The notes below the pieces were generated by a model, which searched no databases, had not been told where the DNA came from, and saw nothing but the letters and a program-made list of their open reading frames with translations. DNA of 64,000 bases, taken from an uncultured Chloroflexia bacterium (GTDB taxonomy: Bacteria > Chloroflexota > UBA6077 > JACCZL01). Position 1 is the first letter of the stretch. Every line of letters starts with the position of its first letter. This document shows positions 383 to 37,667 of this stretch, one piece after another. The translations under genes and the position numbers were made by a program. Location of the stretch: assembly GCA_963765765.1 (NCBI GenBank), contig CAVXYC010000015.1, forward strand, positions 544,001-608,000, written 5' to 3'.

Positions 383-2479
383 TCAAAGCTGAGATACTCT
401 TCCCAGAGCGCCACAACTTCGGCCGGTTCTCGCTCCGAGCTCCAACAGCAGGAACCCGAGATTTTTGTACGCTAATGGCTGCTCGGGGGCCAGTCGGATG
501 GCCGTTCGGTACATCTCGACCGCGTCCGCCGTGCGCCGGTCGGTCTGGAACACATAGGCGAGGTCCAGCGCCACCCGACCGTACTCATGGACCATGCCAA
601 ACTCCCAGCTCGTATCCGGGTACGCCTTACTAGGGAAGCGCGCCTGCTTGAAGATGTCAGCGTAGGTCCGTAGCATCACGAAGCGGTCGGAAACTATGCC
701 CGTGGGCAGCAGCCGATGGGCCAGTCCGACGGTGACCAGATCGAACGCCTCTAGAAAGCCGGCCTCATCCGGGGTGCCAAAAATGTACACCGGCCGTCGT
801 CCCCAGTTGGCCTCGACGAGCCAACCGAGCGAGTTTGTGCGCCCTCGGTCGTAGACTTCGAACGGTATCACCACGTCCGGATACCGACGACGGACCTGGT
901 CAACGTACCAGGGGAACGTGAGCTGCTCCATGTTGAGCGCGATCACGTCGGGTCGCTCACGCTCGACAAGCTGGACGTATGGCACGCCGAAGTTCGGGGT
1001 ATCGCCTTTCATGATGATCAGCGAACCGGGCTCCAGTGGCGCGATCAGGTCCTGGTTGAAATGCAGTGCGAGGTAATTGTCGCTCTGGTCCACGACACCG
1101 AAGTGCGCCGCGGCGGAGGCTGCGGGGAGGGCCAGCAGCGCGATACCGGCGGCCGGGGCGGCGAGGCGGGCGATCGGAGCCGGTAGCCGCAGCTTCCGTA
1201 GCCACAGCAACACCTGACAACAGCCGGCTCCGATGGCGATGGCGAACGGCAGCATCGGTAGGATGTAGAAGCGCTCAAGAATCCCGATCCACAGCCGCGA
1301 GAGCCACGAGCTGGTATCGAGCGCCGGGTTTGCATACGCGGCGAAGATCGGCCCGCTGATCAGGAATGCCAGCAGCAGGGCCAGCCCGGGGACAGCTCGC
1401 CGCTCGGCGAGCCACCACGCCCCTACGGCTGCCAGGAGGTAGCCCGCGGGCGTGAACCCATGATAGAGATTCCAGGCCAGAAACCCGGCCTGGTCGAGTG
1501 GGGAGCTTCCCTGCGCATTTTGCGACAGCAAGTGGAAGGTTCCGTACTGCGCCCTGGTCACGTGCCGGATGAAGTTCTCTAGCGTGCGCGGATCACCCCA
1601 GGCGTACGGCGGGTTCAGACTGGAAGCCACTGGTAAGTACAGATACGGCAGCAGCCCGACCAATAGGAGGCCGGTTGCTATCACCAGTTCGCGCCCGCCG
1701 ACGCCTCGGAGAGCCCACCAGGAATCGCTCCCGGACTGACGGAGTTTGAGAGCGCCCGACCCCAGCAGAACCATAAAGGCCGGCGCTAGCAGCACGATGG
1801 TGTGATGGTTGCTCGCGGCTAGGCCGCACCCGAGAGCGAACGCCCTCAGTAGGCCCACCCGCCACGGACGCCGTTCCCATTCCAGGAGTAGCAGCAACAG
1901 CAGCGCCGCGAACAAGCTGTTCAGCGGAAACACTTCCGCTACTAGCGAGTAGGCCCAGAAGGTCGTCGAGAACGCCAGCGCCAGGCCGCCCACGGCGCCT
2001 CCGATGGCCGCCTGCCACGGGCGCACCCCCGGCTCCGCTGCGGACCCCTTTCCCCAATCCGTCAGCAAGCGGTAGATAATGTGAGCCGTAAGACCCACTG
2101 TGGCAGCATGCAGGACCGCGGACAGCAGATTCAGCCGAAGCGCAGGCGAGCCAACCGGCACGAGGGCGGCCAGGTGGCCTAGCATCGTGTAAAGCGGATA
2201 CCCGGGCGGGTGCGGGATGCCCAGCACCCACGCGGCGGTGATCAGATCCCCACTGTCTCCTGTCGGAAGCGTGGGCGCTACGGTTCGCAGGTAAAGAAGC
2301 AACGCGACGAGCGCACAACTGAGCGCCACGCAAAGGTCAATTCTGGCGGCGTTCCAATCCAGGGTCGCGATTACCGCGGTCCGCGGCATCGGCACACCGG
2401 CTAGCCTGACGGCGCCAGCTCCGCGGCGCGACTTTCCCTCTCGAATCGCTCCTGTCGGCGAAGATCGCTGTGCTGTCAC
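383..2479 (-). CDS. DUF2723 (TMEM260-like) GT-C membrane glycosyltransferase with C-terminal TPR
   Basis: GDSGDLITAAWVLGIPHPPGYPLYTMLG signature, AEVFPLN, NHHT, many TM helices, TPR-like AVEMYRTAIRLAPEQPLAYKNLG; extreme C-terminus probably frameshifted. Confidence 0.85.
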   Translation of the reverse strand: MTAQRSSPTGAIREGKSRRGAGAVRLAGVPMPRTAVIATLDWNAARIDLCVALSCALVALLLYLRTVAPTLPTGDSGDLITAAWVLGIPHPPGYPLYTMLGHLAALVPVGSPALRLNLLSAVLHAATVGLTAHIIYRLLTDWGKGSAAEPGVRPWQAAIGGAVGGLALAFSTTFWAYSLVAEVFPLNSLFAALLLLLLLEWERRPWRVGLLRAFALGCGLAASNHHTIVLLAPAFMVLLGSGALKLRQSGSDSWWALRGVGGRELVIATGLLLVGLLPYLYLPVASSLNPPYAWGDPRTLENFIRHVTRAQYGTFHLLSQNAQGSSPLDQAGFLAWNLYHGFTPAGYLLAAVGAWWLAERRAVPGLALLLAFLISGPIFAAYANPALDTSSWLSRLWIGILERFYILPMLPFAIAIGAGCCQVLLWLRKLRLPAPIARLAAPAAGIALLALPAASAAAHFGVVDQSDNYLALHFNQDLIAPLEPGSLIIMKGDTPNFGVPYVQLVERERPDVIALNMEQLTFPWYVDQVRRRYPDVVIPFEVYDRGRTNSLGWLVEANWGRRPVYIFGTPDEAGFLEAFDLVTVGLAHRLLPTGIVSDRFVMLRTYADIFKQARFPSKAYPDTSWEFGMVHEYGRVALDLAYVFQTDRRTADAVEMYRTAIRLAPEQPLAYKNLGFLLLELGARTGRSCGALGRVSQL

Positions 2480-3840
2480 CGACTTATAGCTCTCCGCATA
2501 ATTCCTCGCTCCCCGCGTCAGGGCTTCGAAAGTCTACGGCTTCTTCCCGCCGTTTTCGGGTGGTCGTGGCGGCATACTAGCACCAACTCACATAGGGCAA
2601 CTTACCGCGACCGCGTCGACTCGGTCGCGGATCGAGAATCGCCTAGAACTCGGCAGCTTCGGGCAGCTCATCCCCATGCTGGAGTAGCCATATTCAGCGT
2701 TGGGGGCATTCAGCGCTGAGGCCAATCCGTAGCTCTGAAGGTTCAGAAAGTTGGAAATCGGTCGAACGGGAACTTAGGCCAAGCACTGCACCTGCTCGGT
2801 ATGCTTCGTGAAATAGCCAGGCTCTCGCCTCAGCATTCCGGTGGTCTTCCGCGGTGGCGCACAGCCGGGGACGTCGCGTGGAGCCTTCGGCTCAGCGGCT
2901 GGCTGGTCGCAGGTGGCGACGTCGGCGACTCGCCAGACAGCCCCTCTACGACCCTGACAGGCTACGGCCTGACAGACATTGGTGCGCATGCGAGGAGCCA
3001 GTCACTTCTATTGGTTCGCCAGCGAGTCCCGGATATCACGCGCCCAGTGCGCCTGGCGGTTGGAAAGGTACAACACAGCTCTTGCCCCAGCGCCTCGGGC
3101 GATTGCTTGGCCGCCCGACCGACTCCGCGCCGCAGGCTGCGCTTCACTTGACCGATCCAGTTTGATCAGCACGGTCGACCGAGTGTGCGACGTTACTGCA
3201 TCCGTCGGCCCAAACCCATGATCGATGTCGAGCGCATCGACGCTGACCGCCGACTCGATTGACACCGCGACGAACCGTTCAGACGACCACCCACTCGGGT
3301 CAAAAATGCCCCCGAATGCACTTGACCATGGCGCGAAGGCATCGGTAGAATGGCCGACCGAGGGCATGGCGCCACGCGGGAGACGGTGGAGCCACCGCTC
3401 GGACCACTGTGGAGTGCGGATTCCCCATAAGGGAGGGCGGGGAATAGATGCGTACAGCGTGGCCTTGTATCACTGTGCGCACCACCAGGTGCCCAGAGTG
3501 TGTAATATTCCACGCTCCCTCAGTCGTATGCCCGGAGCAGATGCCTGGCAGGTGGGACACGGCTGGTGAAGCATCGGCATGAGTGCGGTCCCAGATCTTT
3601 TGTCAAAGGGTCGACACGGCGAACAGGTGCGCCGTCATCACGACCGAACCTGTTTCAAAGGGAGAGGCAAACCCCTCGAAACGGTACGCCGGAGTAATGA
3701 ACGGGAGACTCGGACACGACTGACCGAGTCTCGACAAGGTGAAAGATGGAGCCGCGAACGCGATAGCTGGGGCAACGGAGCCGCAACTGCGAGGCGACCT
3801 TTCGTACAGGCGATATGCAAGCGACCAAGGAATGTCCCCA

Positions 3841-6800
3841 ATGAGCAATAACCCGACCCCGGATTTCGAGTTTATCGTCCTGACGCCGGCCGGTACGCCA
3901 AATCCGGCGCTGGCGATCGCGGGAAGTCGAGCGGGCGCACTCGGAATCCTGAATCTGGAATTTACTGGCGATAGTGAAGCATCCTTGTCTGCGCTGACCG
4001 AGTTGGCAAAGCACGCGCGGGGGCGATTCGGCGTTCTGCTGGATGCCGAATCGGAAGGTCTGCTCCAACTCGTGCTTGAACAAGCCCCACCCGGACTGGA
4101 GGTGGTTGCGCTTACGGCCAGCGCCCCGGAGCGGCTCGCGGGTCTTGTCGAGGCCATTCATGCCAACGGCAGGCGCACGTACGTTGTCATCACCAACTTG
4201 GACGAGGCGCGTGCTGGCCAGAATGCTGGCGCTGATGCCCTGATTGCCAAGGGCCACGAGGCCGGCGGGTGGGTGGGCGAAGAGACTTCCTTCGTCCTGC
4301 TTCAACGACTGCTCCAACACGTGAGCCTTCCCGTCCTCGTGCAGGGCGGTGTTGGCCTGCACACTACACCGGCCTGCTTTGTTGGCGGCGCCGCGGGGGT
4401 CGTTGTCGACAACCAGCTCTTGCTCACTCGTGAGACGCCGTTAGCCGATGACGTGAAAACGCGCATCGCGGCGATGGATGGCGGCGAGACCGTTCGGTTC
4501 GGTGCATCCTTCGGTGCGGGGTTCCGGGCCTACGCCCGGCCGGGCCTGCCCGGCGTCGACGAGTTGCGCCAGCTCGAGACGGCCTTGCTGCTTGAGAATC
4601 CATCGGAGTCCGACGCTCGACGCGCCTGGCGTTCCGAGGTTCGGCGACGTGTCGACTGGCGCAGCGCCGAGGCGGACGTCCTGGCGGTGGGTCAGGATGC
4701 TACGTTTGCCTCTGGCCTTGCCCGACGGTTCGTCACGGTCAGCGGCATCCTCGATGGCCTGCGGGAAGCCATTCAGGAGCATTGTCGGGATGCACAGCGT
4801 CTGCATCCTTTAGCTGAGGACGCGCCACTCGCTCAGTCTCACGGTACCCGTTATCCGATCGTGCAGGGGCCAATGACCCGGGTGAGCGACCGGGCGGAGT
4901 TCGCCGAGGCGGTGGCCGAAGGCGGCGCACTTCCTTTCCTGGCGCTGGCGCTCATGCGTGGGCCCGAAGTGAAGACATTACTGGAAGAGACGAAGCAACG
5001 TCTCGGTGCTCGACCCTGGGGCGTCGGTATCCTCGGATTCGTACCGCAGGAGCTCCGCACAGAGCAGTTAGCGGTGATCCGAGAGTGCCAGCCGCCCTTT
5101 GCCCTCATCGCTGGCGGTCGCCCGGATCAAGCTCAGGCCTTAGAGCGTGACGGCATTAGCAGCTACCTCCACGTCCCATCACCAGGCCTGCTCGAGATGT
5201 TCTTGCAGGACGGTGCCCGCCGCTTTGTCTTCGAGGGTCGTGAGTGCGGCGGCCATGTCGGGCCGCGGACCAGCTTCGTGCTGTGGGAGACAATGGTCGA
5301 CGTGCTACTAGCCAACCTGCACACCGGTGCAAACGCGGCCGAGTATCACGTACTCTTCGCGGGCGGTGTTCACGACGGCCGGTCCTCGGCGATGGTGGCG
5401 ACGCTGGCCGCACCGCTTGTCGAGCGCGGAGTGCGGGTCGGAGTCCTGATGGGGACCGCTTACCTCTTCACCGAGGAAGCTGTGCGAGCGGGGGCGATCC
5501 ATCCGGGCTTCCAGCAAGTAGCGGTCGAAACCGAGCAGACGGCACTTGTTGAGAGCGGGCCGGGCCATGCTACTCGCTGCGCCCCCTCGCCCTTCGTCGA
5601 GGACTTTGAGCAGGAAAAGCGCCGGCTGCTGCAGGGTGGCCTGCCCGCCGAGGAGCTGCGCAATCGCCTCGAAGAGCTCAACATCGGCCGCCTGCGCGTT
5701 GCCGCCAAAGGCGTCGACCGCGATCCCAACCCGGACGGGGAGCCGGGTGCCCGCAAGCTGATTGAGATCGGCGAGGAGGAGCAGTGGTCGCGGGGAATGT
5801 ACATGATCGGCCAGGTCGCCGCATTGCGCGACCGCGTTTGTACTCTTGCTGAGCTGCATCGTGAGGTCTCGGACGGCGGCGCGGAGCGCCTCGGCACAGC
5901 GTGGCAGACGGAGCTGGTGGCAGCCTCTCCTACTCCGGCACCAGCCGCCGTCGCGATCGTCGGCATGTCGGCCATCGTGCCAGGCGCCCCCGATCTGCAG
6001 ACGTTCTGGACGAACATCTTCAACAAAGTGGATGCCATCACTGAAGTTCCTGAAGAGCGCTGGGATTGGCATCAGTACTTCGATGAGGATCGCACAGCAC
6101 GCGACAAGATCTACTCTCGCTGGGGTGGCTTCATCGACCCCGTCCCGTTCGATCCTCTCGAGTTCGGCATGCCGCCCAACTCGCTCACGTCGATAGAGCC
6201 GTTCCAGCTCCTCGCACTGGCAGTGGCGCGAGAGGCGCTCAAGGACGCGGGCTATCTGGACCGTCCCTTCCCGCGTGAACGCACTTCGGTGATGTTCGGG
6301 GCCGGAGGCGGCGGTGGCGACTTGACGGGCGGCTATGTGACCCGCTCTATGCTGCCTACCTTGTTCGGAGAGAGTGCCGCTGAGCTCACTGAGAGCCTCA
6401 ACGGTGTGCTTCCAGAGTGGACCGAAGATTCCTTCGCCGGCATCTTGATGAACGTGGCGGCAGGCCGAGTTGCCAACCGCTTGGACCTTGGCGGAGTAAA
6501 TTTCACCGTTGATGCCGCCTGCGCCTCTTCTCTGGCAGCCGTTTACCATGCGGTGCGGGACCTCGAGGCGCGGACGAGCGACGTGGTCATCGTCGGCGGC
6601 GTCGACGCCATCCAGAATCCATTCGCCTTCCTCTGTTTCAGCAAGACGCACGCACTTTCGCCAAACGGCCGCAGTCGCCCTTTCGACGCCGAGGGTGACG
6701 GCATCGCGATCAGTGAAGGCTTTGCGGCGCTGGTTCTTAAGCGGTTGGAAGACGCCGAGCGAGACGGAGATCGGATCTACGCTGTCATCCGCGGTGTCGG

Positions 6801-9800
6801 TGGCTCGAGTGACGGGCGAGATCGGAGTCTCACCGCTCCCCGTCCAGATGGACAGACACGCGCGCTGCGGCGTGCCTACGCCCAAGCCGGCTTCTCACCG
6901 TCCACCGTCGGTTTGATTGAGGCGCACGGTACCGGCACCGTGGCCGGCGACCAGGCTGAGTTGCAGGCACTGACAACCTTCTTCAGCGAGTTGGGGGCAC
7001 CCACGCAAGGCTGCGCGGTAGGCTCTGTCAAGTCGATGATCGGCCACACCAAGGCCACGGCGGGCGTCGCCGGGTTAATCAAGAGCGCCCTGGCACTGCA
7101 CCATCGCGTACTGCCACCCACCCTCGGGGTTGCCCAGCCAAATCCGAAGGCGAACTTCCCGTCCAGCCCCTTCTACGTCAACTCCGAAACCCGCCCGTGG
7201 GTCCAGGCTGCCGGGTCCGACCCACGACGGGCCGGCGTCAGCGCTTTCGGTTTTGGCGGCACGAACTTCCACGTCGCGCTCGAGGAGTACACCGGAGATT
7301 ACCTGCCGAAGGAGCGCGCCACGCTCGACTCCTGGTCCGCCGAGCTTCTGGTCTGGCGCGGTCACTCGCCCGTGGAGATCCTGACGGCGGTCGATTCGCT
7401 GCTCAGCGATCTGGAGCAGGGCGCGGAGCCTCGGCTCGCCGATTTGGCCTACTCGCTCAGCTTGTCATCCAGCTCGCTCGAGGCAGGCCAGCCAACGCTG
7501 GCTATCGTAGCGACGTCGCTGGCGGACTTGGCGGACAAGCTGCGTGCGGCCCGAGACCTGCTTCAGAGCGGCGCTGAGCGCGGCCACATGCCGCAAGGTC
7601 TACACTACGCCGAGAGCCCCCTGGCGCGTGATGGCGAGATCGCCTTCTTGTTCCCCGGCCAGGGCTCGCAATATGTGAATATGGCGCGCGACATTGCGGC
7701 CGTCTTCCCGGAAGCACGGGCCTCATTCGATGAGGCCGACAGTGTCCTGTCCGAATTGCTGGAGCGGCCGCTGAGTCGTTGGATTTGTCCCCCACCAGCG
7801 TTCACGCCAGAAGAAGAGCAGCGACAACGGGCTGAACTGACTGAGACCAATATTGCCCAGCCAGCGCTCGGGGCGACGGACATCGCATTCTACCGTCTCC
7901 TACTTGCGCTCGGTGTGGAACCAGGGATGGTGGCCGGTCACAGCTACGGTGAGTTCGTCGCGCTGTGTGCAGCCGGGTGTTTCGACGAGGAAACGCTGCT
8001 CACCCTCTCGGAGGCCCGTGGTCGCTTCATCCGCGAAAGCGCCACTGACGACTCCGGGACGATGGCCGCCGTCGATGCGGCGCCGGACGCCCTGCAGGAG
8101 CTGCTTGCCGATCCAGAATTAACCCTCGCCAACCTCAACGCACCCCGGCAGACCGTTGTCGCCGGCACACGCACCGCGGTCGAACGCGCCATTGCCTGGT
8201 GTGCGGAGCGCGGCCTCCGCGCCCAACAGTTGCCCGTTGCCTGTGCTTTCCACTCGCCGTTGGTCGCGCCGGCCCAGCAGCGTCTGGCCCAGCTACTCCG
8301 CCAGACGTCGATCCGGCGACCTCGCATTCCCGTCTTTTCGAACACCACAGCGGCGATCTATCCCGACGAGGAGTCAGCGATCGGCGAATTGCTGGCCGAG
8401 CACCTCGTCCGCCCGGTGGATTTCGTTCGCGAGATCGAGGCGATGTACGAGGCTGGTGCCCGCATCTTCGTTGAGGTCGGCCCGCGTAGTGTCCTCACCG
8501 GGCTCGTTGACCGGATTCTCGGTGATCGCCCTCACGTCTGCGTTCCGTTGGACCAGCCCGGAAGGCCTGGTCTGGTCCAGCTGCTCCACGGCCTGGCGAC
8601 TCTCGTCGCCGAGGGCGTCCCGCTACAGGCCGAGCGACTCTACCGCGGCCGCACGGTCCGGCGCCTGGATCTCGCCGCACTCCGGCGCGAGACGCGCCAG
8701 CCGCAATACTCCTCGACGACCTGGCTGGTTGACGGGGGGCGAGCCTGGCCAACCCATGGTGAGAGCCACCAGAAACAGCGCGCGACCGTCCCATTGCAGA
8801 TGAAAGCCGCCGATGGCCCAACCACCGTCGCCAAGTCCAGCATCGACGCTACAACACTCGCTTCGGCAGAGCGCGAAGGCGCGCACGGCAATGGAACGGG
8901 CAATGGTCAGCACTCAGTATCGCAACTGCAGACTGCTGCCGCATACAACGGCCAGACACAGGTCAATGGCGCAAGCAGCTACCCGACGGTCCTGGGTCAC
9001 ACGCCCGCCGCGGTAGTGAGCCAGCCACCGGCTCCTGCCAAAACGTTGGAAACAGGGCCAGCGGTGATCTCCTCGTCACCGCTCGCCATCATCAATGACT
9101 CCACACCCGAGGTCATGCGCCAATTCCAGCAAGTCATGCAGCGCTTTCTCCAGACTCAGCAGAGCGTCATGCTGGCCTATCTGGGCGCGCCCGAGCACGG
9201 AGTCCAAGCCCCCACGTCGGAGTCTGGAGCATCAACCAACATCCAGGTGACCAGTGCGACGCGGCAGCCAATAACGGTCCAGACCCCGATCAGCCTAGGA
9301 GCCGCGATTGAGACGAATGGCATGGACACGTCGAGCGCGCTCGTGACGGGCCCGCCCGTCGCGGCCGACGCGCCTGCCAGACTTGCTAATGAGGTGCCGG
9401 TCGATGAACAGGGCAAGGAGCCGGCAGTCTCTGCGCCGATCGCGAACCCGGCCTCGTCCTGGGGTCGAGAGCAGATCACGGAGCAAGTCCTGGCCGTCGT
9501 CAGCGATCGGACAGGCTACCCAGCGGACATGCTGGGGCTCGATGTCGACATGGAAGCCGATCTAGGGATCGACTCCATCAAGCGGGTTGAGATTGCGGGG
9601 ACCGTTGTGCGGCTCCTGGCACTTACCATGGACGACTCTACCGATCTCGAGCGGTTGACGACCAGCCGCACCCTCCGGCAGGTCGTTGAAAATCTGGAGG
9701 CGCTGCTCGCGCCCGGCTCGAGAGTGGAACAGGGCAAGGAGCCGGCAGTCTCTGCGCCGATCGCGAACCCGGCCTCGTCCTGGGGTCGAGAGCAGATCAC

Positions 9801-12744: not shown

Positions 12745-12856
12745 GGCCGCGACTCCCGCGTTTCATCCGGACGAAATGGTCAGTCCGCAGCGTCAGCATT
12801 GATCACGGAAGGACCATGAGCTCATCACATCCAATAAATAGGAACGAGAAAACTGG

Positions 12857-18577: not shown

Positions 18578-18592
18578 GATGGGGAGCCTTTC

Positions 18593-24815: not shown

Positions 24816-24885
24816 GGATGGGCTGCAATGCTCGGATGGTTCGTTTTATTTCGCGGCGAAAACTTTCAAGATAATCGGAGAAGCA

Positions 24886-27398
24886 ATGAGACATCGTGTT
24901 AGGGCGTGGACGCTTGCGGCGATCGTGCCATTGGTTGCACTGCTACTGTTCCAGGCAGCGCCTGGCCAGGCAGTCAACATCTTCGGACCATTCACGAAGA
25001 TCAATGAGACGGGTTTTGGCGACCCAGCGAATGACTTTGCTTGGTCGATGGCATGGTTCAAGGGCAAACTGTATGTCGGGGTCAGTCGCAACCAACTCTG
25101 CCAGGAGCGAGCGACGTACGAGTTTTACTACCCAGGGACCGGGCAGTATATTACCTCTCCCATGCCGGGCGTCACGTGCCCAGCTGATATGTATGACATG
25201 GATCTTGGAGCCGAGATCTGGCGCTACGACCCCGCGACCAGCGCCTGGACGCGAGTGTATCAATCGCCTAAAGACCTCGACAATCCGAAAGCCCCCGGGA
25301 AGAAGCTGCCGCGCGACTCCGGCTTCCGGGGAATGGGAGTGCTCAACGATACGCTCTACGTGGGCGGTATCACCACCAGGGAATGGATCAACGGGACGGT
25401 CACGACAGCCTCGCCCCCCAATCTGCTTCCGGGGCCGCGTCTGCTGAAGTCCACGGACGGCACCAACTTCGAGCCTATCGAGTTCAACGGCACCGTGCAG
25501 AACAACTGGAACCAATATGGCGTGTTCACCGAATATCCGATGGGCTTTCGCGTGGTGCTTCCTCACCAGGGACGGCTGTTCCTCACGACCAGCCTCAGCC
25601 TAACTGGCGATGGACCGATCGTGGAGTTTAACCCTTCAACGAACACCTTCACACAGGTCAGTCCCCCGAACCTCAGGCCCTTTGAGCTGGAGAGCTTCAA
25701 CAATCAGCTCTACGCGGGAACGGGCGACGACAAGACCGGCTATGGGGTGTGGAGATCGAATGCGGTCGCGACCGGTAGCTCGGGATACTTCTCCTTCACG
25801 CCTATTCTGACCGGCGGTGCGGCCGAGGCGCGAATATCACTTCGGTAGTCAGTATGCAACCCCACCAGGGTCGGCTCTACGTGGGCAGCAGTGGCTGGTA
25901 CAATAATTCACTCTTCCCAGCTTCTGAGCTCATTCGCGTGAACCCAAATGACACCTGGGACGTTGTCGTCGGCAACTGTCGCATCGTCGGGATCACCGGC
26001 AAGTGTCCGATCAGTGGGATGTCCGACGGCTACGGCAACATCTTCAATGCCCACTTCTGGCGGCAGCAGAGCCATGGGCCGACGCCCAGCACGGCCGCAC
26101 TCTATGTCGGCACCAACGATATCAGCTACCTCTACAACCTCGGCCTCAACCTCTTCGCATCCGAGAATGGATTCGATATGTACTCGAGTCTGGATGGCAG
26201 GTATTGGTTTCAGGAAACGCGGACGGGGTTTGGGCGCCCGAACAACTTCGGTGCCCGGACATTCGCCTCCGCGAGTACTGGAGCCGGACCCGCAGCCTCT
26301 TCGTGGGGAGCGCCAACCATGCGACCGCGACGGAGGTCTTCCGTGGTGCGACTGTTGCGTGTGCCACGGCGAGCGACAGCGCGCCTGGGCCGGACAAGCC
26401 GAAGAAGCCGAGGGAGAGCCTCCTCGACCTAGCCAGCCCGCTGCTAGGTGCACAGGCCTGGTTAGCTACTCAGACCGGGGACTCGCCGGTAGCGAATGCC
26501 GCCCCTGAAGCCGGGCCCACTGGGCTCCAGCGGGATCGGTCTGCTCTCCAGGGGCCAACCGAGCTGGAGGCCCGAGGTGCAGGGAGGGGTGCCAATCTTG
26601 TCCTGGATTCCCGCACCGGGGGCGACTCGGTACGAGATCTTCCGCGCTACCTACCATCGCGCCAAAGACGCCAATGTCCGTCGGGCTCAGAACGCGCCGG
26701 TACCACCTGAGAATGCTCGCCGACTAGGCGTGCCTGAGCTACCGTACAGCACGCCACCGGACGATGCCTGGATTGCCGGAGATTACAATCAGATCGGGAC
26801 CACCACGGAGACGTTCTTCCAGGATCGCAGCGCAAAGGACGACATCCAGTACGCCTACTACGTGCAGTCCGCGGGTCGGGGTGGAGACGACTCCGCCTCG
26901 TCCAATATGGTGATCGTGCCGTCCCTGGCCCCAGTGACCACTTTTGATCTGGTCGAATCGAAGATCAAAGATCTGGCTGACCACGGACAGATCAAGGATG
27001 GGGCCGTCGACGCGCACCGCAAGCTCCTGAGCGAGGGCAAGTCGGCCGCCGCGGCGGGCGATCTGCCCGGCGCGCGCGGGAAGTTGGAGGCCCTTAATCG
27101 CCAGGTAAATCAGAATCCGGGTAATGCGCTGGATACTCTGGCCGCTGAAGACCTGGATCTCGCGGTGTCGAGCTTGACTCGGCGGGTCAGGCTGGCTGAA
27201 GCTGGTGTCCTTACCCTCGAAGGGGTTCCGCAGGGGCAGCCGACTCTGACCCCAACGGCAACATCGACGTCCACTAGTCTTACCCCGACTTCAACGTCGA
27301 CGACCCCTACCCCGACTTCAACGTCGACGACCCCTACGCCGGCGCCACAACAGCCGACAGCAACGGCAACCGGGACACCCCGGGGACCGGGACGCTAG
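24886..27398 (+). CDS. Secreted beta-propeller-like protein with Fn3-like domain, helical (FIMAH-like) domain and Thr/Pro-rich tail (frameshifted)
   Basis: GGAG plus ATG, signal peptide, repeated F.G.LYVG blades, LSW.P..GATRYEIFR...YAYYV, TPTSTSTTP tail; ORFs 24787-25848, 25854-26432, 26496-27398. Confidence 0.7.
27281..27337 (+). repeat. 27-bp tandem repeat (x2) encoding TPTSTSTTP
   Basis: taccccgacttcaacgtcgacgacccc twice. Confidence 0.85.
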
Positions 27399-27547: not shown

Positions 27548-29064
27548 GTGCCCCCGGGCGGCAGATCATCGTCCGTGAGCTACACCGCGGTGGCAATGGA
27601 GGACTCTCTGGCCAGCATGATAGGCGAACGATCGGTACCACGACTCGGCCTGCTCGCGAGGGTGCTGTACGGCGTCGGAGAAATTACCGACTCGGTGAAG
27701 ATGGCGATCTTCGGAATCTTCGTCTTCTTCTTCTACACCACGGTCGTGGGACTCCCCGCTACACTTGTCGGCATCGCTTCCGGCATCGGTCTGGTCTGGG
27801 ATGCTGCTATTGATCCTTTCATCGGGTATTTCTCGGACCGCGTGCGTGTCCGCTTCGGTCGGCGCCATAGCTTCATGCTCGTCGGCGGGTCGACAGTGGG
27901 GCTCTTGTTCTGGGCCCTTTTTAGCCCTCCGCGAGATCTTCCAACCGAGGCGCTCTTCGCGTGGCTGCTGATTTCCAGCTTGCTGGTGCGTCTGGCTAGC
28001 TCGGTTTTCTTCATCCCGTATCGGGCGCTGGGAGCCGAGCTCAGCGGCGGCTATCACGACCGAACCACTCTGACCGGTGTACGCGCTGCCTGTGGTCTGC
28101 TGGGGGCGATGCTTGCCGCCAGTCTGTCATTCAGCCTCTTCTTTCCAAACCGCGTGCCCGGTCAGGATCCCAAGCTGGACTATGCTGGGTATCCCATCAT
28201 GGGGCTGGTGTTCGGGCTGGCGATGTCGCTGGCAGCGCTCGTCGCCACGGCGGCCACACTGCGATGGCGTTCAAACCTGCCGACGTCCGAAAGCACCCTA
28301 ACCGGGAACACACCTGGTTTCGCGTCGGGGACGATCGGCGCACTAAGGCACACCTCATTCCGGGTGTTATTCTTGTCCTTTTCCTTAATATTTCTCGGTC
28401 TTGTGATCACCGATACACTGTTTATTCACTATCTCACCTACTACGTGGAGATCATCGATAGCAGTGCTCTGAGCGGGTTGCAAGCAGTCTTTTACACGGC
28501 GGCGATCCTGGGTGTCCCAGTGTGGCTTCGGATCTCGAGAACGGCCGAGAAGCGAACCCTCTACCTGTTGGCCACCATCGCCACGGCGCTGCTCATACTG
28601 AGCGCTTTCTTGCTCCTGGGCAACGGCCGGCGATTCGGGACCGGCGACGCGCGGCCACTTATGGTCGGTCGAGCCATCGGTGGCTTCTTCGGCAGTCTCT
28701 TCTGGATATTGCCCACGTCGATGCTTGCGGACGTCGCCGACGAGGATACCTTGGCCACGGGCCAGCGCCGCCAAGGCATCTTCTTCGGCCTATTCAGCTT
28801 CGGCCAGCAGTTCGCCACCGGACTATCAGTGCTTATCGTCGGGGTCCTGATGGAGAGGTTTGCCGGGCTTGCGCCCGGGGAGGCTACCCAATCTCCGCGA
28901 CATCTGAGCGAATCGGTTTGCTCTTCAGTGTGCTACCGGCCGGGTTGTTGTTCGTCGGGGCTCTCCTTGTGACACCCTACGCTTTAGATCGTAGGCGAGT
29001 CTCGGCTATTCAGGCTCAGCTCCCACGGCCGGAGAGCACCGCGGCGGCGGCGACCGAAGTCTGA
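27548..29064 (+). CDS. MFS transporter, GPH/MelB-like family (frameshift near 28900)
   Basis: WDAAIDPFIGYFSDR..FGRR, IPYRALGAEL..YHDRT, SMLADVADED..RRQGIFFG; about 12 TM segments. Confidence 0.88.
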
Positions 29065-29561
29065 TGACGAGGCGAAGCGGGAGCGATTCACGACCGGACA
29101 ATGCAGGCCCGTGCGTGGAGGTGGCAGCATGGGCGCAGGGATTGTGCTCCTGCACCTGGCGGGCGCCGAAATGGCTCGCCAGCATCCTGGTCGCGTGCGA
29201 ACCAGCGTCTGGCCAGCGCCGCTGATCTTGCCACGTCTCACCAGCGGCCGCAGTCTGCGGCTCGGTTGGGTTGTTTATCGGCAGTTCTTGAGCCGAGTGA
29301 GGACACGACCGCTCTGATGAGCGGCTCCATTCTGACATCGGGTTGTTCCGCGAGCGGGTCATTGGGCGGCCATTGCGGCCATATCAGCTCGATCCGGCCC
29401 GTCGAATGCCGTGTGCCAAATTGGCACGCCGCTTGATGACAACTGGCATTGTGAGCTAAACGTGGCCGGGCCGAAGATCGAGAGGCGTCATGCTAATCCA
29501 CAATCCGCGTGGCGCAGACCGACCGGACGCGTCGGAATATGCTCGATTGAGGACGAATTTG

Positions 29562-30737
29562 ATGCGACATCGCAACGGAATTGCTCTCGCAATCCTGAGT
29601 CTGGGGCTGACGCTTATTGCTGTTATGCTCCTTACTGGCCCGCGAGAGGCGGAGGCCGCAGCGCTGGCCACCTCCTGCGATATCAAGGTGGCGCGCAAGC
29701 TCGCCGACGGCGGAGAGCCGGCCTGGTCCCCGGACGGTCAGCAGCTGGCCTACCACCGCTGGGACGACGACGGCGTCTACCAGCTGCGGATAATGGGCGC
29801 GGATGGCTCCAATGACCGCTGCCTGTCGTGCGCCGCCGCGCCTGGCTCCCCCTCAGGTTGACCGCCATAAGGTGCACCCAACGTGGCACGCCTCTGGCCG
29901 CTTTATGGTGGTGCAGGGTGAGATGGGCGGGAACGTGCTGTCCGGGGACCGCTCGAAGCTGGCCTCGGAGCTGTTCATCAATGGCATGTGGATGAACTTG
30001 TATGCCGTCACCCCCGACGGCCAGCAGTGGCACCGCTTGACTGACTACATCGCCATCGGCGCCAACGGGGCGATGATGCCGTACTTCTCCGCCGATGGCT
30101 CCAAGCTGCTCTGGTCCCGCCTGGTTCGGGCGGCATCCGCATGGGAACCGTGGGGCGCGTATCGTCTCATGCTGGCCGACTTCGTCATTGACAGCAGCGG
30201 CAAGCCGAGCTTGCAGAACATCCGCGGACCTCACCCCATCGTGGGGCGGCAGCTTCTTCGAGTCGCACGGGTTTTCCCCCGATGGGAAAGCAGCCATCTT
30301 CGCCTCCGATCGGGAAGCGCGAGACAAGTGGGGGATGGAGATCTGGACGATGGACCTCGCCAGTAGGGCACTGACGAACCTAACCAAGAGTCACCATTTT
30401 GAGGAGCACGCCAGGTACTCCCCGGACGGGAAGAAGATTGCCTTCATGTCCAGCGCACCTTACGACTGGCTGTTCATCACGTACCAGACTGAGTTGATGC
30501 TAATGAATCCCGATGGCTCGAATAAGCGGATGCTGACGCACTTTAACGTGTCCGGTCTTCCCCGATTCCGCAATCGACGGCGATCGGAATCGCTCGATGC
30601 CCATGAAGCCGGCCTGGAGTGCGGATGGCACGCGGATGGCCCTGACCCGCCAGCTCTCGGACTCGAACTACCCGACCCGCCAGCTCTGGCTGTTGACCTT
30701 CAACGGCCCCTGCGGCACCGATCAAAGCAGCGTATAA
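29562..30737 (+). CDS. Secreted TolB-like / PD40-repeat beta-propeller protein (frameshifted)
   Basis: Signal peptide, PAWSPDGQQLAY, FSADGSKLLW, FSPDGKAAIFAS, YSPDGKKIAFMS; TAA at 30735-30737. Confidence 0.75.
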
Positions 30738-30751
30738 GGTATCCTCGGTGG

Positions 30752-31258
30752 ATGGTCCTTCGCATCGTCGGGGCTGGTCTTGTCGGACTCAGCGTCCTCA
30801 TTCTGGCGGCCGACTGGGCAGCACGGGCTCTGGCCCGAGAGCTGCCGGCTCCCGCCGGTGCCTGCAGCATCAAAGAGATGGCCTATCTCACGGAGGGGGG
30901 AGAACAAGATTGGTCGCACGCCAATGATCTGCTCGTGTATGACAGGATGGACGCCGCCGGCGTCTACCAGCTCTACACGATTCAGCCGGATGGCTCCGAG
31001 GAGACGTGCCTCACCTGCGATATACCCGTCGGCTGGCACCGGCTAAATCCGGGCGTAATGGACCGGTTGTTTGCAGCCAACCGAATCGGCTGGGGCCACA
31101 CGGACTCGACTCGCTCGAATGTCTTATCGAAAGCGGGAAGGAGCAATGATTACGCGACGCAGAGGGCCCGGGAGCGCCAGGCCGACAGGCTTGCGGCGTT
31201 TGCCTTGCCCTCATGCCTGAACATTGCGTCTCCTCGGCACAAAAGCGACGACCAGTAG
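30752..31258 (+). pseudogene. Truncated paralog of the TolB-like protein
   Basis: Signal peptide then DWS..LLVYDRMDAAGVYQLYTIQPDGSEETCLTC, parallel to GVYQLRIMGADGSNDRCLSC; similarity lost after about 31030. Confidence 0.6.
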
Positions 31259-31422: not shown

Positions 31423-32704
31423 TCAAAGCCTGGTCGCCACAACGTAGCGCTCGAAGGCCTCAACGGCCTGCCCGACGCCGTCCTCGGCCCGGATCCGTTC
31501 ACCCAGTGTGGCGGCCCGCCGACGCATTTGGTCATCGCCCGTTGCTTCCCGGATCGCCGCTGCCAGCCGTTCCGCAGTCAGCCTCTTGCGAGGGACGGGG
31601 CGCGGTCCGACACCGAGCTCGCTGATTCGCCGCGCCCAGAACAGTTGATCCCCGTAGTAGGGAACGACAACAGCCGGCAGACCCGCACGCAGGCCGACCG
31701 CGGTCGTGCCCGCCCCCCGTGGTGCACCAGGGCTGTCGTCCGCGGAACGAGCCAGCTGAGGGAACCTCGTCAACGGCGAAGACCGACTCGGGCAGCCTAT
31801 CAGACCCGTCCAGGCCACCCCAACCCGTCACCAACACCCCGCGCTGCCCGGCTGAAGCGAGAGCTTCCACTACCAGCCTGGTCGTCCGTGCCGGATCCCG
31901 ATCATTGACACTCCCGAAGCCAACGTAAACCGGCGGCGGGCCGTCCGCCAAGAACTCGGCCAACCCCACCGGGGGCTGCCAGTCGGGCGGATCATCCAGC
32001 AGCCAGTTGCCGGTCACATGGATCCGGTCCGGCCAGTCAGGCGGCTTCGGGGAGACGGCGGGACTAAAGCCGTACAGCAAGAGGCCACGCCTCCTATCCA
32101 GCTCCCTCAACGGATGTCGCCACGGTAGCGGTGGCAGATGGAGGACCTCACGCCGCGTGGTGTTGACCAGTGGGCGAAAGAGAAGCCATATGAACTGTCG
32201 GTAGACCATGTGGGTTAGCAAGTTGAAGTGGCCCCCCAGGCGCTCCCCGAGCGGCGTCAGGGACGTGTCGGCCGGGTAGTAGCGTGTCGGCGTCACCGGA
32301 GAAAGGAAAGCTCGGACCAGTGGCACACGCAGCCTTTCGGCGATGTGATAGCCGAGGAAGCTCCCGAGGACACCGGCGACGATGACATCGGCGTTCTGGC
32401 ATGCAACCCAACAATCGCTCGCGAGGTGGCGCGCGATAGGTGCCACCGTGCGGTGAAGCCCCCTCGCCCAGCGCAGAATGTCTCCACCGTCATCTACCCA
32501 ATCACGTGCCGCCTCGGTCCTCGAAATCTCAACGGGATCGGCTACGATCGGGAAGAAGTCCAGCTTTCGCTCGTTCACGAACGTCTTGAACATGGCGTGC
32601 GTTGCGATGCGTACGTCATGACCGGCTGCCTGCAAGCCCCGGCCCAGAGCGACATATGGCTCCACGTCGCCGCGTGAGCCCAGGGTCAGGATGGTCATGC
32701 GCAC
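31423..32704 (-). CDS. GT1 sterol-3-beta-glucosyltransferase-like glycosyltransferase (frameshifts near 31710-31760)
   Basis: GSRGDVEPY, P.DWP, PPVYVGFGS, GAGTTA.GLRAGLP.VVVPYYGDQ.FW. Confidence 0.88.
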
Positions 32705-33579
32705 TACTGTTCGACTTTTTGCAGGACGAACCGCAGGTACTGCAATGCCCCCGACCCGAACATCTCGAACGCTTTGCTGCCCTTGACGCCCGCGAACTCT
32801 CGGTATGATGGGCGCAGAGCCCTGGGAAGCCTCTGAATATTCGCCAGCCGGCGCCCGGTGTCGAGCTCGAGCGCGCGGAGTACGTTGGGGGTGATCCATT
32901 CTTCCTGGAGTATGACCAAGCCTGATCGCTCGAACTGCTGCCGTAAAGCATCTACTTGGTCCGTTGAGCGTAGATCTGCGAAAAGGAAATGTCCTTCTGG
33001 GCGCAGCACTCTTGCCACTTCACTGAGGAATTGCTCCATACGTGGATAACTATGCGATGACTCAATATTGATTACCGCATCAAATGAGTCACCTGCAAAT
33101 TGCAGATCTTCTGCGTCTCCTTTGGTGAATGATAACCCTTCAATACGATAATGATTTCTGCAAAACTCAATCGCTTTGTCAGAGAGATCAATTCCAATTA
33201 AAGTATGAGGATGAAAATATTCTGCTACAAATGCAGCACCACCACCTCTTCCACAGCCAATCTCTAGTACATTCTTATCGAGAATAGTGACACCATTGAT
33301 CACACGTCTGTAAAGTTGCACGCCATATGTGCTATTGTTGTATTGGTTACGAATTTCTTCATCAACATACGGAATTCCTGCGTTGGCATATCCATAATTC
33401 ATGAATGTTACCCTGGCCGTCTTGTCTCTCGCACTGACCGATTCGTATAGCCTTCGGATAAGCTCCTTCTGGAATCGGGTCCGTATTGGATCAATCCGCG
33501 AAATTGTGTCAAGTGCAAGAGAGAACATCAGTCCCGGAAAGTACCGAATCAGATACCGCAATCTCTTAGACATATACAT
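32704..33579 (-). CDS. Class I SAM-dependent O-methyltransferase (Rv2952 / fatty-acid O-methyltransferase-like)
   Basis: FMNYGY, VLEIGCGRGGG, GDAEDL.F, NIESSHSYP, VLRPEG; stop overlaps the GT start (TAGTG). Confidence 0.85.
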   Translation of the reverse strand: MYMSKRLRYLIRYFPGLMFSLALDTISRIDPIRTRFQKELIRRLYESVSARDKTARVTFMNYGYANAGIPYVDEEIRNQYNNSTYGVQLYRRVINGVTILDKNVLEIGCGRGGGAAFVAEYFHPHTLIGIDLSDKAIEFCRNHYRIEGLSFTKGDAEDLQFAGDSFDAVINIESSHSYPRMEQFLSEVARVLRPEGHFLFADLRSTDQVDALRQQFERSGLVILQEEWITPNVLRALELDTGRRLANIQRLPRALRPSYREFAGVKGSKAFEMFGSGALQYLRFVLQKVEQ

Positions 33580-34389: not shown

Positions 34390-35334
34390 TCACGACTTAG
34401 CTTCTCGTCGATGCCCCGTTGGCATTATGAACCGATCGACAAGCCGCTCGGGAATCGGCCCAGCTCGAAGAAGGTCGGCGAGCCTTGCGCCTCGCCCGAC
34501 GAGGTACCGTGCCTTCGGCTTCCTGGCCGTAAGCGCGTGCTCGACCGCGACGGCGATGACATCGGCCGGAACTCGGATGGTGCTCGACTTCTCCTGAGAC
34601 TGTCGATTGTGGGCAGCAGCTGACTGATACAACTCCTGTGCGTCCCGCGGGAGCTGGCTGAGGATCCGGTCGAGCCCGCTGCTCGCCTTATCCCAAATGG
34701 GAGTCGCGACTAATCCGGGCATTACAATGGAGACCTCGATGCGCCAGGGCCGTAATTCTGAGCGCAGCACCGCCGTGAGGGTCCGCAGGGCGCTCTTCGA
34801 GGCAGAGTAGGGACCACTCAGCGGGACACCCAAACCTCCGATTGCTGATCCTATCATCACGACCCGGCCGCGCCCCTGGCGGAGGAGCGGCAGGAACGCC
34901 TGCGTCACCGCGATCTGCCCGATCACGTTCACCTCGAATTGCTCCCGGAGCGCCTCGAGAGGGAGGAACTCGAGCGGCCCTAGGACGGAGATCCCGGCGT
35001 TGTTGACCAGACCTACCAACCCGACCTCGCCGACTTCGGCGGTAATCGCATCGGCCGCCTTCGCGATCGATGTCGAGTGGGTGACGTCCAGGTCGACGAC
35101 GCGCAGCCGCTCGGACGCCTCATCCCGCAGGCGACGGTCGTCCTCGCCCGGCAGCACGCCCGCGAAGACCCGGAAGCCGTGCCGGTCGAGCCGCCGCGCG
35201 CACGCCAGGCCGATGCCGCTCGATGCGCCGGTAACCACCACGCCGCCCCGCTCAGCACGTCGGGCCGTCAAATCGCCGTCGCATGGTGTGCACTGGTCGA
35301 TCGGTTGCTTCCCACCACGAGATGGTAATTGCAC
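34390..35334 (-). CDS. Short-chain dehydrogenase/reductase
   Basis: TGASSGIG, NNAG, YSASK, PG.VATPIW. Confidence 0.9.
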   Translation of the reverse strand: MQLPSRGGKQPIDQCTPCDGDLTARRAERGGVVVTGASSGIGLACARRLDRHGFRVFAGVLPGEDDRRLRDEASERLRVVDLDVTHSTSIAKAADAITAEVGEVGLVGLVNNAGISVLGPLEFLPLEALREQFEVNVIGQIAVTQAFLPLLRQGRGRVVMIGSAIGGLGVPLSGPYSASKSALRTLTAVLRSELRPWRIEVSIVMPGLVATPIWDKASSGLDRILSQLPRDAQELYQSAAAHNRQSQEKSSTIRVPADVIAVAVEHALTARKPKARYLVGRGARLADLLRAGPIPERLVDRFIMPTGHRREAKS

Positions 35335-36415
35335 CGCTCCGACTCAGACAATGGAACCCGTGCAAGTGATCGATAACCGAGGCGAGAATGGATATGCATC
35401 ACACGGAGCCCTCGGCACATGAGGTGTCTGGCGTTGGCTGCGCTGGATGTCACCACGGAGACATCACAGGTGCACCGCATGTCGAGTGAGGTACGAATCC
35501 GGTAGCCATCGAGGTCGGTGGATGTTCAAGTCAGGTCTTCTACTTTTCCTCGGGCTGCGTCATACCCTGACCTACGCAGTGCTTGTGCAGCCATCCAATC
35601 AAGCGCTCCGTCTGGCAGAGGTATCCGTCTGCCGAATTCGCTGACCCTTGCGCCCAGCCCGAGGACGTAATGGGACTTCGGTGTGCTGGCTGCAAGCGCG
35701 TGCTCCACTGCAGTGGCGACGCCCTCCGGGGACAGAGGCAGGCTGCGTTTCGAATGCGAGGCTACTCCGGTGAAGGCGCGATCCAGTCGATACATCTCGC
35801 GAGCTTCAGAGTGCAACTGGCGAGCCATGTCATCCAGTCGACGGAAGCCCTTCTCCCAGATTGATGTCGTGACTTCACCTGGGATGACAATCGAGACCCG
35901 AATGCCCCAGGGATGTAGCTCCGCGCGCAGCACCGCCGTGAGGGTCCGCAGGGCGCTCTTGGAGGCGGCATACGGGCCGGTAAGGGGGATCGGTAGCCAA
36001 CCGGTCTGCTGATCCTATCATCACGACCCGGCCGCGCCCCTGGCGGAGGAGCGGCAGGAACGCCTGCGTCACCGCGATCTGCCCGATCACGTTCACCTCG
36101 AATTGCTCCCGGAGCGCCTCGACAGGGAGGAACTCGAGCGGCCCTAGGACGGAGATCCCGGCGTTGTTGACCAGACCCACCAACCCGACCTCGCCGACTT
36201 CGGCGGTAATCGCATCGGCCGCCTTCGCGATCGATGTCGAGTCGGTGACGTCCAGGTCGACGACGCGCAGCCGCTCGGACGCCTCATCCCGCAGGCGGCG
36301 GTCGTCCTCGCCCGGCAGCACGCCCGCGAAGACCCGGAAGCCGTGCCGGTCGAGCCGCCGCGCGCACGCCAGGCCGATGCCGCTCGATGCGCCGGTAACC
36401 ACCACGCCGCCCCGC
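34843..36415. repeat. Near-identical ~409-bp direct repeat (34843-35251 and 36007-36415)
   Basis: Constant offset of 1164; four mismatches seen by eye. Confidence 0.9.
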
Positions 36416-36432
36416 CGAGGCTGTCCGTCCAT
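35526..36432 (-). CDS. Short-chain dehydrogenase/reductase paralog (frameshift near 36005)
   Basis: TGASSGIG, NNAG, YAASK after the shift; AGGAG before ATG at 36432. Confidence 0.85.
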
Positions 36433-36649
36433 CACCCGACTCTCCTGCGCCCCTGATGAGTTGAGACCTGGGCGCTTGCCGATGATACGGCCCATGGCCA
36501 AGTCAGTCCCAGGCTGGGGCACCCGCGGGCCGCCTGTTACCCGCAACAGGACCTGTGCTACGCTCTCGCCGCACCTGCCGGACCCATCTCAGCATACCGT
36601 CGAGTCGCTGCCACACCGTCGCGCACTGAGAGTCGGGGACCCTAGCTGG

Positions 36650-37667
36650 ATGCTGCCGATGCTCACTGGAAACAACACGCCCCGCCCCAGCTCAAGTCGC
36701 CGACCGGTCAGTGTGGGTCTGGTGCTGCCACTCGTCGAGGGGCAGCGGGCCGGGTCGACGGCGCGCTGGTCGGACCTTCGCGCGATGGCAGTGCGAGCCG
36801 AAGAGGTCGGCTTCGACTCGATCTGGGTCGTCGACCACCTGCTTTTCCGCTTCAACCTTCGCTTTGGCCGCGAGGTGCGGCTCGGGGCCTGGGAGTGCTG
36901 GAGCCTGCTCTCCGCGCTCGCGGCCGCGACGCAGCGCGTTCAGCTCGGCACCATTGTGGCCTGCACCGCGTTTCGCAACCCCGCCATGCTGGCTAAAATG
37001 GCCGACACCGTGGACGAGATCAGCGGCGGGCGCCTGATCCTGGGACTCGGGGCCGGTTGGCACGAGCCCGAGTTCGACGCCTTCGGCTATCCCTTCGACC
37101 ACCGGGTGGGCCGATTCGAGGAGGCGTTGACGATCATCGCGACCCTCCTGCGCGAGGGGGCGATCGATTTCCGTGGGAAGTACTACCAGGCTCGCGACTG
37201 CGAGCTTCGCCCGCGCGGGCCGCGGCGGACCGGGCCGCCGCTGATGATCGGCGCCTCGGGCGAGCGGATGCTGAGCCTGACCGCCCGATTCGCCGATCTC
37301 TGGAACGCATGGCTGATCTTCGGGCGCAGCCATCCCGACGAGATCCCGCAATTCCGAGCCAAGGTGGACGCGGCGTGCCAGCAGATCGGGCGCGATCCGG
37401 CGTCGCTCGGGCGCACTGTGGCGGTGCGGGTCGCCCCGGGCGGCTCATCCGGGCAGCTGCGCGCCAGCCTGCTGCAACTCGGGGCGCGGCTGGCGGGTCT
37501 CAAGGCTCGAGGCAGTGCCGCTGACCGGGTCACCAGCGGCCCTGGCGGAGGCGCTGCTCGCCTTCGCCGCCGAGGGCATCTCGCACGTCCAGGTCGAGCT
37601 CCAGTCGAACTCTCTGGCCGAGGTCGAGGCTTTCGCCAGCGTGCTCCAGGCGCTCGATCGGCGATAG
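36650..37667 (+). CDS. LLM-class (luciferase-like) flavin-dependent oxidoreductase (frameshift near 37510)
   Basis: GFDSIWVVDH, LAAATQRVQLGT, RNPAMLAKMA.TVD.ISGGRL.LGLGAGW. Confidence 0.9.

Follow-up and report, generated by a model that had tools for sequence, protein, structure and literature searches.

Genes of the cluster and their conservation

The window analysed here is a 64,000-nucleotide stretch (positions 544,001 to 608,000) of contig CAVXYC010000015.1, from an uncultured Chloroflexia bacterium. It carries a cluster built around two polyketide synthase genes (PKS1 and PKS2), followed by genes for a free acyl carrier protein (ACP), an alkaline phosphatase-superfamily (AlkP) enzyme, an alpha/beta hydrolase, two short-chain dehydrogenases/reductases (SDRs), a family 1 glycosyltransferase (GT1a) and a secreted beta-propeller. 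Gene order in the block PKS-ACP-AlkP-hydrolase-SDR-GT1-secreted propeller is shared by six phyla, far beyond chance. We put at about even the chances that it encodes a two-subunit iterative fatty-acid-type synthase, which would build a saturated very long acyl chain, pass it to the free carrier, release it and, in this branch, glycosylate it. Domain content, residues and synteny were read directly from the sequences, and each reaction of the pathway is proposed on that basis. The conserved genes are as follows, some gene ends being approximate.

3739..12744, plus strand: PKS1, ArsA/PfaDA-like, with an inactive-looking enoyl reductase (ER), an ER with an active motif, a ketosynthase (KS), a malonyl-type acyltransferase (AT), two ACPs, a ketoreductase (KR) and a dehydratase (DH); conserved core
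12857..18577, plus strand: PKS2, with a KS, a PfaB-like AT without the Arg, an optional ACP, a DH and a phosphopantetheinyl transferase (PPTase); conserved core
18623..18925, plus strand: free ACP, from another family than the ACPs of PKS1 and PKS2; 40/40 loci
18922..20535, plus strand: AlkP-superfamily enzyme (PF01663); conserved core of the window's branch
20554..21558, plus strand: alpha/beta hydrolase, coding part to ~21400, the open reading frame (ORF) continuing into the SDR; 36/36 loci
21430..22312, plus strand: SDR copy 1, a 17-beta-hydroxysteroid dehydrogenase 1-like ketoreductase, with 3-4 frame breaks; SDR in 34/36 loci
22443..23340, plus strand: SDR copy 2, with 2 frame breaks and 79% DNA identity to copy 1
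23502..24815, plus strand: GT1a glycosyltransferase (MGT/EryCIII-like), with an in-frame stop at 24429-24431; 35/36 loci
24787..27398, plus strand: secreted beta-propeller with a fibronectin type III-like C-terminal part and 2-3 frame breaks; 35/36 loci

The synteny was established with two scans. The first, seeded with AlkP, gave 50 loci, and 49 remained once a spurious one (L063) was dropped; they come from Chloroflexota, Planctomycetota, Actinomycetota, Acidobacteriota, Acetobacteraceae and Thermodesulfobacteriota. Upstream genes were counted in the 40 loci with at least 7 kb of upstream sequence and downstream genes in the 36 with at least 8 kb downstream. PKS2 is found in 39/40 loci and the free ACP in all 40, and downstream the hydrolase is found in 36/36, the SDR in 34/36, and GT1a and the secreted propeller in 35/36 each. 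An independent scan seeded with the hydrolase (80 loci kept of 88, some of them near-duplicates) found AlkP in 57 of the 67 loci with upstream sequence and beside 29 of the 30 visible PKS2 genes. The co-occurrence of AlkP, SDR and GT1a with the synthases is thus supported. A lack of such co-occurrence for the GT, methyltransferase and AlkP genes was what an earlier note on this DNA had named as refuting its proposal of a long-chain envelope lipid pathway. ORF and profile scans likewise place every gene listed in that note where it had been seen, with real domains. The note had also counted a divergent GT-C gene as part of the locus, and this does not hold: the gene is ruled out as a cluster member, being present in 0/49 AlkP-seeded loci and in 0/8 regions upstream of relatives' PKS1. 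The tie to the long-chain diols of Chloroflexota that it drew is unlikely as well. PKS2 is carried by 2/66 genomes of the class and 3/401 of the phylum, the window's own genome included (the samples are partly incomplete, and the unpublished G006 enters only as a negative in the class tally), and this rarity among the host's kin argues against a lineage-wide membrane-diol pathway. Roseiflexus is listed under a different synthase type, R, in a published survey (PMC3098273). Cultured strains with this branch of the cluster include Micromonospora sonchi, M. qiuiae and Paludisphaera soli.

The remaining genes around the block are accessory or lie outside it.

383..2479, minus strand: TMEM260-like GT-C gene, divergent; inside the range of the earlier note, outside the conserved cluster
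27548..29030, plus strand: GPH/MFS_2 transporter (accessory), with 1 frame break; 1/36 loci
29530..31100, plus strand: TolB-like propeller (accessory) and a short truncated paralogue, with 3 breaks; 5/36 loci
31435..32707, minus strand: GT1b glycosyltransferase (accessory), with 2 frame breaks; 9/36 loci
32704..33579, minus strand: O-methyltransferase (accessory); 8/36 loci
34390..36546, minus strand: two further SDRs, the second with a frame break; link to the cluster uncertain
36164-37675: LLM oxidoreductase, rejected as a cluster member

The GPH transporter also occurs in 2/8 regions farther downstream of relatives' clusters. The two minus-strand SDRs are 92% identical over 569 nt, and an SDR-like gene remnant lies on the same strand at 33580-34390, where GC content is lower (56% for 32001-34000). 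The LLM oxidoreductase was ruled out because it is found in 0/49 loci and the genome has 37 other LLM hits; the 314-nt end of its gene (37372-37684) recurs 2.9 kb downstream at 40257-40567 with 94% identity.

The window's copy of the cluster contains about 19 frame breaks (count 18-20), all of them downstream of PKS1; besides PKS2 they affect both plus-strand SDRs, GT1a, both propellers, the GPH transporter, GT1b and one minus-strand SDR. Assembly errors are the likelier cause. If the breaks were real, the pathway would be dead in the window's strain, independently of its chemistry in relatives, and this we hold to be unlikely. Decay would account for the density of the breaks, about 0.6 per kb in roughly 31 kb of coding DNA, which is two to three times the background in 57 control genes of the same genome (14 frame changes and 11 in-frame stops in 73.6 kb, or 0.19-0.34 per kb, as aligned from a same-genus genome), and for the SDR remnant at about 33.6-34.4 kb. 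However, breaks also occur in 18 of the 57 control genes, which lie outside the cluster in the same genome, and the cluster's breaks are nearly all frame changes, with one in-frame stop. PKS1, the free ACP, AlkP and the hydrolase are intact and keep their catalytic residues. Short-read contigs, which come from near strains rather than the host strain, do not have the extra base at 14042 (two runs) or at 23203 (one run). Outside the cluster, an AcrB-family transporter gene (46885-50036) is split into two ORFs by another frame break of the assembly. One RNA run contains fragments of close relatives, which is no proof of transcription. Rfam gave no riboswitch match in the window or in the PKS1 leader (2450-3900), and nothing upstream of relatives' PKS1 apart from a tRNA.

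The two synthase subunits

PKS1 is read in one uninterrupted frame (3001 aa) and comprises two ER barrels of the NMO/FabK type, a KS, an AT, two ACPs, a KR and a DH; its probable start is at 3832 or 3841. The His of the EAGGH-type motif is catalytic in such ERs. The first ER lacks this residue in most rows of the alignment and the second retains it, although among relatives' PKS1 proteins one has the His in both ERs and one lacks the second ER; the ER-ER-KS part was matched over its full length in 8/10 related genomes. The acyltransferase (AT1) is malonyl-type, with the Arg present in 26/26 rows. The two ACPs (9406..10050) form a perfect 324-nt tandem repeat, 100% identical, and may be a recent duplication or an assembly artefact, the relatives' loci in view having a single ACP ahead of the KR. 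The PKS1 of a Thermodesulfobacteriota cluster (L075, G045:C2:160144-164601) has the His-less ER alone and no DH before PKS2, and its product may differ.

PKS2 begins 113 nt past the end of PKS1. In the assembly it is split into four ORFs by three frame breaks (near 14042, within 15875-16430 and near 17250), whereas in relatives (L012, L014, L015, L021, L024) it is one ORF of 1541-1926 aa. In the window its ketosynthase (KS2) has an intact Cys-His-His triad. Across 40-49 rows, catalytic residues are conserved in KS2, in the DHs of both synthases, in AlkP and in the hydrolase. The ACP of PKS2 belongs to the same family as the PKS1 ACPs and is missing in 32/45 loci, a pattern that marks PKS2, by its domain content, as a partner subunit of PKS1 rather than a separate module. 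PKS2 has no KR. A fungal-type non-reducing PKS with a product-template domain was ruled out, as the ACP is optional, the AT is not malonyl-type and the DH matches the ArsD-like DH.

The acyltransferase of PKS2 (AT2) retains the catalytic Ser and His in 43/43 rows and has lost the residues that bind malonate. The Gln of the GQG motif is Glu in 36/36 covered rows, the motif-I Gln is Val, Ile or Ala in 43/43, and the malonate-binding Arg is absent in 43/43 (39/43 in a register shifted by one). PfaB of polyunsaturated fatty acid (PUFA) synthases lacks the same Gln-Arg pair and has been described as a long-chain terminal acyltransferase (Lofeudo et al. 2026, PMC12895367); in the same work, it loads ACP in vitro from palmitoyl-CoA.

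These features suggest how the work could be divided. By sequence, PKS1 supplies the KS, the malonyl AT, the carriers, the KR and one ER with an active motif, and PKS2 the DH and PPTase, as ArsD does. KS2 could then take over for the late rounds of elongation, working on the shared PfaA-type ACPs in the manner of PfaC, and AT2, going by its active-site residues, would transfer the finished long chain to the free ACP. The chain may be about C22-C26 long, by analogy with the Type P synthases compared below.

Proposed release and tailoring of the chain

The stop codon of the free ACP overlaps the start of AlkP. The best PDB match of this ACP is weak (2KW2, a 'specialized ACP', E 0.0024), and its single NCBIfam match is PRK06508 (E 1.7e-4); both we take to be AcpXL, a very-long-chain carrier. 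AlkP has no hydrophobic leader, and its Thr nucleophile and metal ligands are conserved. Most loci have the gene flanked by those for the ACP and the hydrolase, and it persists in loci that show no GT1; the enzyme is predicted to work alongside the free ACP and hydrolase, not the glycosyltransferase. The Ser-Glu-His residues of the hydrolase are conserved. An AlkP orthologue (P0098, 59%) is found in Paludisphaera borealis, from which a hydroxylated C25:0 fatty acid has reportedly been recorded; our literature search did not find that report.

We tentatively suggest, while thinking it improbable, that the free ACP, AlkP and hydrolase form an undescribed chain-release module, in which AlkP modifies the very long chain, still on its carrier, with a phosphate- or sulfate-linked group and thereby sets how the hydrolase releases it. 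If so, the product would be a new class of anionic very-long-chain glycolipids, common to soil Chloroflexota, Planctomycetota, Actinomycetota, Acidobacteriota, Pseudomonadota and Thermodesulfobacteriota. AlkP-fold proteins are described as needed for sugar sulfation in Halobacterium (PMC11980604), and genes for sulfate activation, sulfatases or sulfotransferases lie near a minority of loci. The link to sulfation was uninformative when followed through genomes: an adenosine phosphosulfate (APS) kinase is found in 5/5 genomes tested, but also in 11/14 controls.

Two side observations concern these genes. A second, distant AlkP paralogue (23-29%) lies near the clusters L098, L099, L011, L017, L095 and L106, some with sulfate-activation, sulfatase or arylsulfotransferase genes. 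AlkP is absent from two further loci (L194:2544-7975 and L208:4561-11154), where a related hydrolase neighbours a free ACP or a propeller and is accompanied by genes of peptidase-like, HlyD, radical-SAM or sulfotransferase type; these are possibly other lipid cassettes.

The same genes could serve the start of the chain instead of its end. AT2 and the free ACP would then load a ready-made fatty acyl starter and KS2 would perform the first extension, with the hydrolase limited to editing and AlkP recycling carriers or nucleotides. The transfer of palmitoyl-CoA to ACP by PfaB in vitro (PMC12895367) fits this scheme, and so do the nearest solved relatives of AlkP, which are hydrolases (phosphonoacetate hydrolase and nucleotide pyrophosphatase). 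Such a cluster, however, would be left with no other conserved release enzyme, and the Actinosynnema Type M cluster, as tabulated in the 2011 survey, has an acyl-CoA synthetase-ACP (ACS-ACP) gene besides its free ACP (PMC3098273), weakly suggesting another job for the latter. We judge a starter-loading role decidedly unlikely.

Among the tailoring enzymes, the SDR and the O-methyltransferase resemble enzymes that act on aliphatic compounds. The plus-strand SDR is closest to 17-beta-hydroxysteroid dehydrogenase, and the O-methyltransferase to mycobacterial phthiotriol and fatty-acid O-methyltransferases (214 and 207 bits, both under the cut-off); the best families of the latter enzyme act on aliphatic lipid hydroxyls. 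GT1a is present in two copies in 20/36 loci. The propeller part of the secreted protein (24787..27398) has no Pfam family. A single-sequence fold failed (predicted local distance difference test, pLDDT, 35) and the aligned fold is confident (pLDDT 92.9). None of its PDB matches stands out: they are generic propellers, with Z running from 27.5 at the top to 24.3 at rank 50 and identities of 7-16%.

For the release of a single very long chain, the preferred reading, these genes may be ordered as follows. The hydrolase would free the chain as a hydroxy- or oxo-acid, and the SDR would turn a ketone into a secondary alcohol. AlkP may act at the release stage, perhaps most likely by placing a phosphate- or sulfate-type group on the chain. 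GT1a would put on a sugar, with optional decoration by GT1b and the O-methyltransferase, and the product would be exported and meet the secreted propeller.

A ketone could also arise if KS2 joined two long chains head to head; the hydrolase would free the mid-chain ketone, the SDR would reduce it, and one or two GT1s would yield a very long secondary alcohol glycoside, for which the sponge simplexides provide a parallel. The second KS with an intact active site, the long-chain-type AT, the separate carrier, the ketoreductase-type SDR and the paired GT1a copies would all find a place in such a pathway. No carboxylase that could activate the second chain is conserved, though (one carboxyl transferase lies near a single locus), and L033 and L038 have two GT1s but no SDR seen, so that we consider head-to-head joining very improbable.

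Several observations weigh against the preferred reading, a released and glycosylated single chain. AT2 differs from bacterial PfaB in having kept His rather than Tyr ahead of its Ser, KS2 lacks a chain-length factor (CLF) partner, and the transfer by AT2 may run the other way, by analogy with the in vitro loading by PfaB. The Halobacterium AlkP-fold enzymes are sulfatase-like and are likened to the cluster's AlkP by fold. An M-like Streptomyces plasmid cluster has neither AlkP nor SDR, so neither is needed for release. A tailoring block in L056 (7466-11600) has no PKS genes and stands directly behind a recombinase-like ORF; no orthologous PKS2 was found in that genome. GT1a occurs in just 12 of the 24 hydrolase-seeded loci with at least 3 kb downstream (SDR in 13). 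In six distant loci of a sister branch (L169, L170, L175, L178, L179, L189), what comes after PKS2-ACP-AlkP-hydrolase is a B12 radical-SAM enzyme, a methyltransferase or unassigned ORFs, and neither an SDR nor a GT1 is visible. These counts and distant loci make PKS1-PKS2-ACP-AlkP-hydrolase the tightest unit, and on gene content glycosylation is a mark of the window's own sub-branch. The lipid was first supposed to be both glycosylated and methylated; GT1a makes glycosylation likely for the AlkP-seeded loci and for half of the hydrolase-seeded ones with enough flank, and methylation is optional.

Comparison with known systems

The cluster was at first taken to have an unusual architecture, but its layout matches that of Types M, N and O in the survey of secondary-lipid synthases by Shulse & Allen (2011, PMC3098273). 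Table S1 of that survey gives for these types an ER-KS-MAT-ACPn-KR gene (MAT, malonyl acyltransferase), a KS-AT-PPTase gene and a free ACP, with no product. Members named there include Frankia, Streptomyces avermitilis, Renibacterium, Actinosynnema, Chitinophaga, Chryseobacterium, Dinoroseobacter, Parvularcula and Gloeobacter. The window shares the fused ER-KS-MAT-ACPn-KR gene, the adjacent KS-AT-PPTase gene and the adjoining free ACP, as well as the hShxH motif of the PPTase defined for Types M-T, which is present in the window and in the 45-row consensus. The window adds the PKS1 DH and the optional PKS2 ACP; the 2011 table gives no DH or tailoring genes, so the named members are not comparable there. 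The Renibacterium cluster was still termed uncharacterised in 2026 (PMC13291983), and papers on Isosphaeraceae mention type I PKS clusters, the passages concerned naming no products (PMC5352709, PMC12078418, PMC12402505). In agreement with the earlier note, which could match no product, no characterised one for the Type M/N/O layout was found in the literature searched (subscription papers and MIBiG lay outside the search).

The M-like Streptomyces plasmid cluster is close to the window, with PKS1, KS-AT-DH-PPTase, ACP, hydrolase (31.6% identical), glycosyltransferase and methyltransferase genes and an Arg-less second AT, although it lacks AlkP, SDR and the secreted propeller. KS2 groups with the KS2 of this cluster in FastTree (support 97), a grouping that IQ-TREE leaves unsettled when five long-branch rows are removed. 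A Rhodobacteraceae plasmid cluster of O-like layout (L068:9889-24743) has a TauD dioxygenase, a citrate-synthase-like gene and a methyltransferase between its two PKS genes, and its AT-DH-PPTase protein has no KS by Pfam.

Type P clusters are colinear with the synthase part of the window. Their tandem-ER-KS-AT-ACP2-KR protein is the best KS1 match (58%) among 1594 plasmid records; in the Beijerinckia indica plasmid cluster the ERs are 36% and 56%, KS1 58.6%, AT1 48% and KR 39% identical to the window, and the first ER lacks the His and the second has it, as here. The stand-alone DH-PPTase of B. indica matches the PKS2 DH (40% and 29%) and PPTase (33%). Compared with Azotobacter vinelandii and B. 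indica, the window fuses KS2-AT2 to the DH-PPTase part and adds the free ACP, the hydrolase and AlkP; no type III PKS (chalcone-synthase-type) gene was found among the 47 window ORFs scanned. Neither in Type P nor in the M-like Streptomyces cluster does PKS1 include a DH, which is why the DH of PKS2 (DH2) fits the reduction cycle.

This colinearity bears on whether the product has an aromatic head. Where the window has KS2-AT2, separating the ArsA-like from the DH-PPTase part, B. indica carries two type III PKS-like genes, and both clusters continue with a glycosyltransferase. The trio of KS2, free ACP and hydrolase might thus replace ArsB and ArsC, with unreduced extension, closure to an alkylresorcinol, resorcylate or pyrone, and glycosylation. 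The absence of a KR from PKS2 would suit unreduced extension. But AT2 has no malonyl-binding residues, DH2 is homologous to the ArsD-like DH and so need not act as a cyclase, and the SDR and O-methyltransferase resemble enzymes for aliphatic ketones and hydroxyls. An aromatic head is, in our estimation, quite unlikely.

The earlier assignment to the PfaA-family secondary-lipid synthases is sound, PKS1 exceeding the PfaA family cut-off (TIGR02813) with 1328 against 1010 bits. The KS phylogeny proposed with it answers in part: KS1 groups with Type P and M/O-like plasmid clusters (17 rows, support 95-96) and is separate from PfaA-like KSs found in split clusters, in a tree that holds neither HglE, PksE nor the named 2011 M/N/O proteins, so that no single type letter is assignable. 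With the heterocyst glycolipid synthase (Type F, hgl) the window shares the PfaA-family KS/ACP style and the logic of a long chain plus a glycosyltransferase, whereas the KS-CLF-AT, stand-alone ER and ACP-fused terminal protein listed for Type F are absent from the window, and the window's PPTase is fused. With the PUFA synthase PfaABCD it shares, besides the PfaA-level score of PKS1, the loss of the Gln-Arg pair from AT2 as described for PfaB. In contrast to that synthase, Pfam finds no CLF and no FabA-type dehydratase/isomerase domains in the window's PKSs, PKS2 having a single KS and a PKS-type DH, and a polyunsaturated chain is thus not expected. The enediyne synthase PksE has KS-AT-ACP-KR-DH-PPTase in one chain, whereas here a KR is missing from PKS2 and a PPTase from PKS1.

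Types M, N and O have been without a product since 2011, and the branch occurs in at least six phyla, including cultured strains, so that knockout and lipid analysis are feasible. The predictions to be put to such strains are that AT2 is a long-chain transferase, that the PKS2 ACP is dispensable and that DH2 serves PKS1. New in this analysis are the resemblance of AT2 to PfaB in its signature residues, a PKS2 ACP that is dispensable, and the linking of AlkP to the ACP-hydrolase step; a function for this AlkP subfamily together with a new long-chain soil lipid would interest lipid biochemistry and biomarker work. Judged by its sequence, the locus is an AlkP-bearing variant of the known orphan Type M/N/O synthase and not a new architecture.

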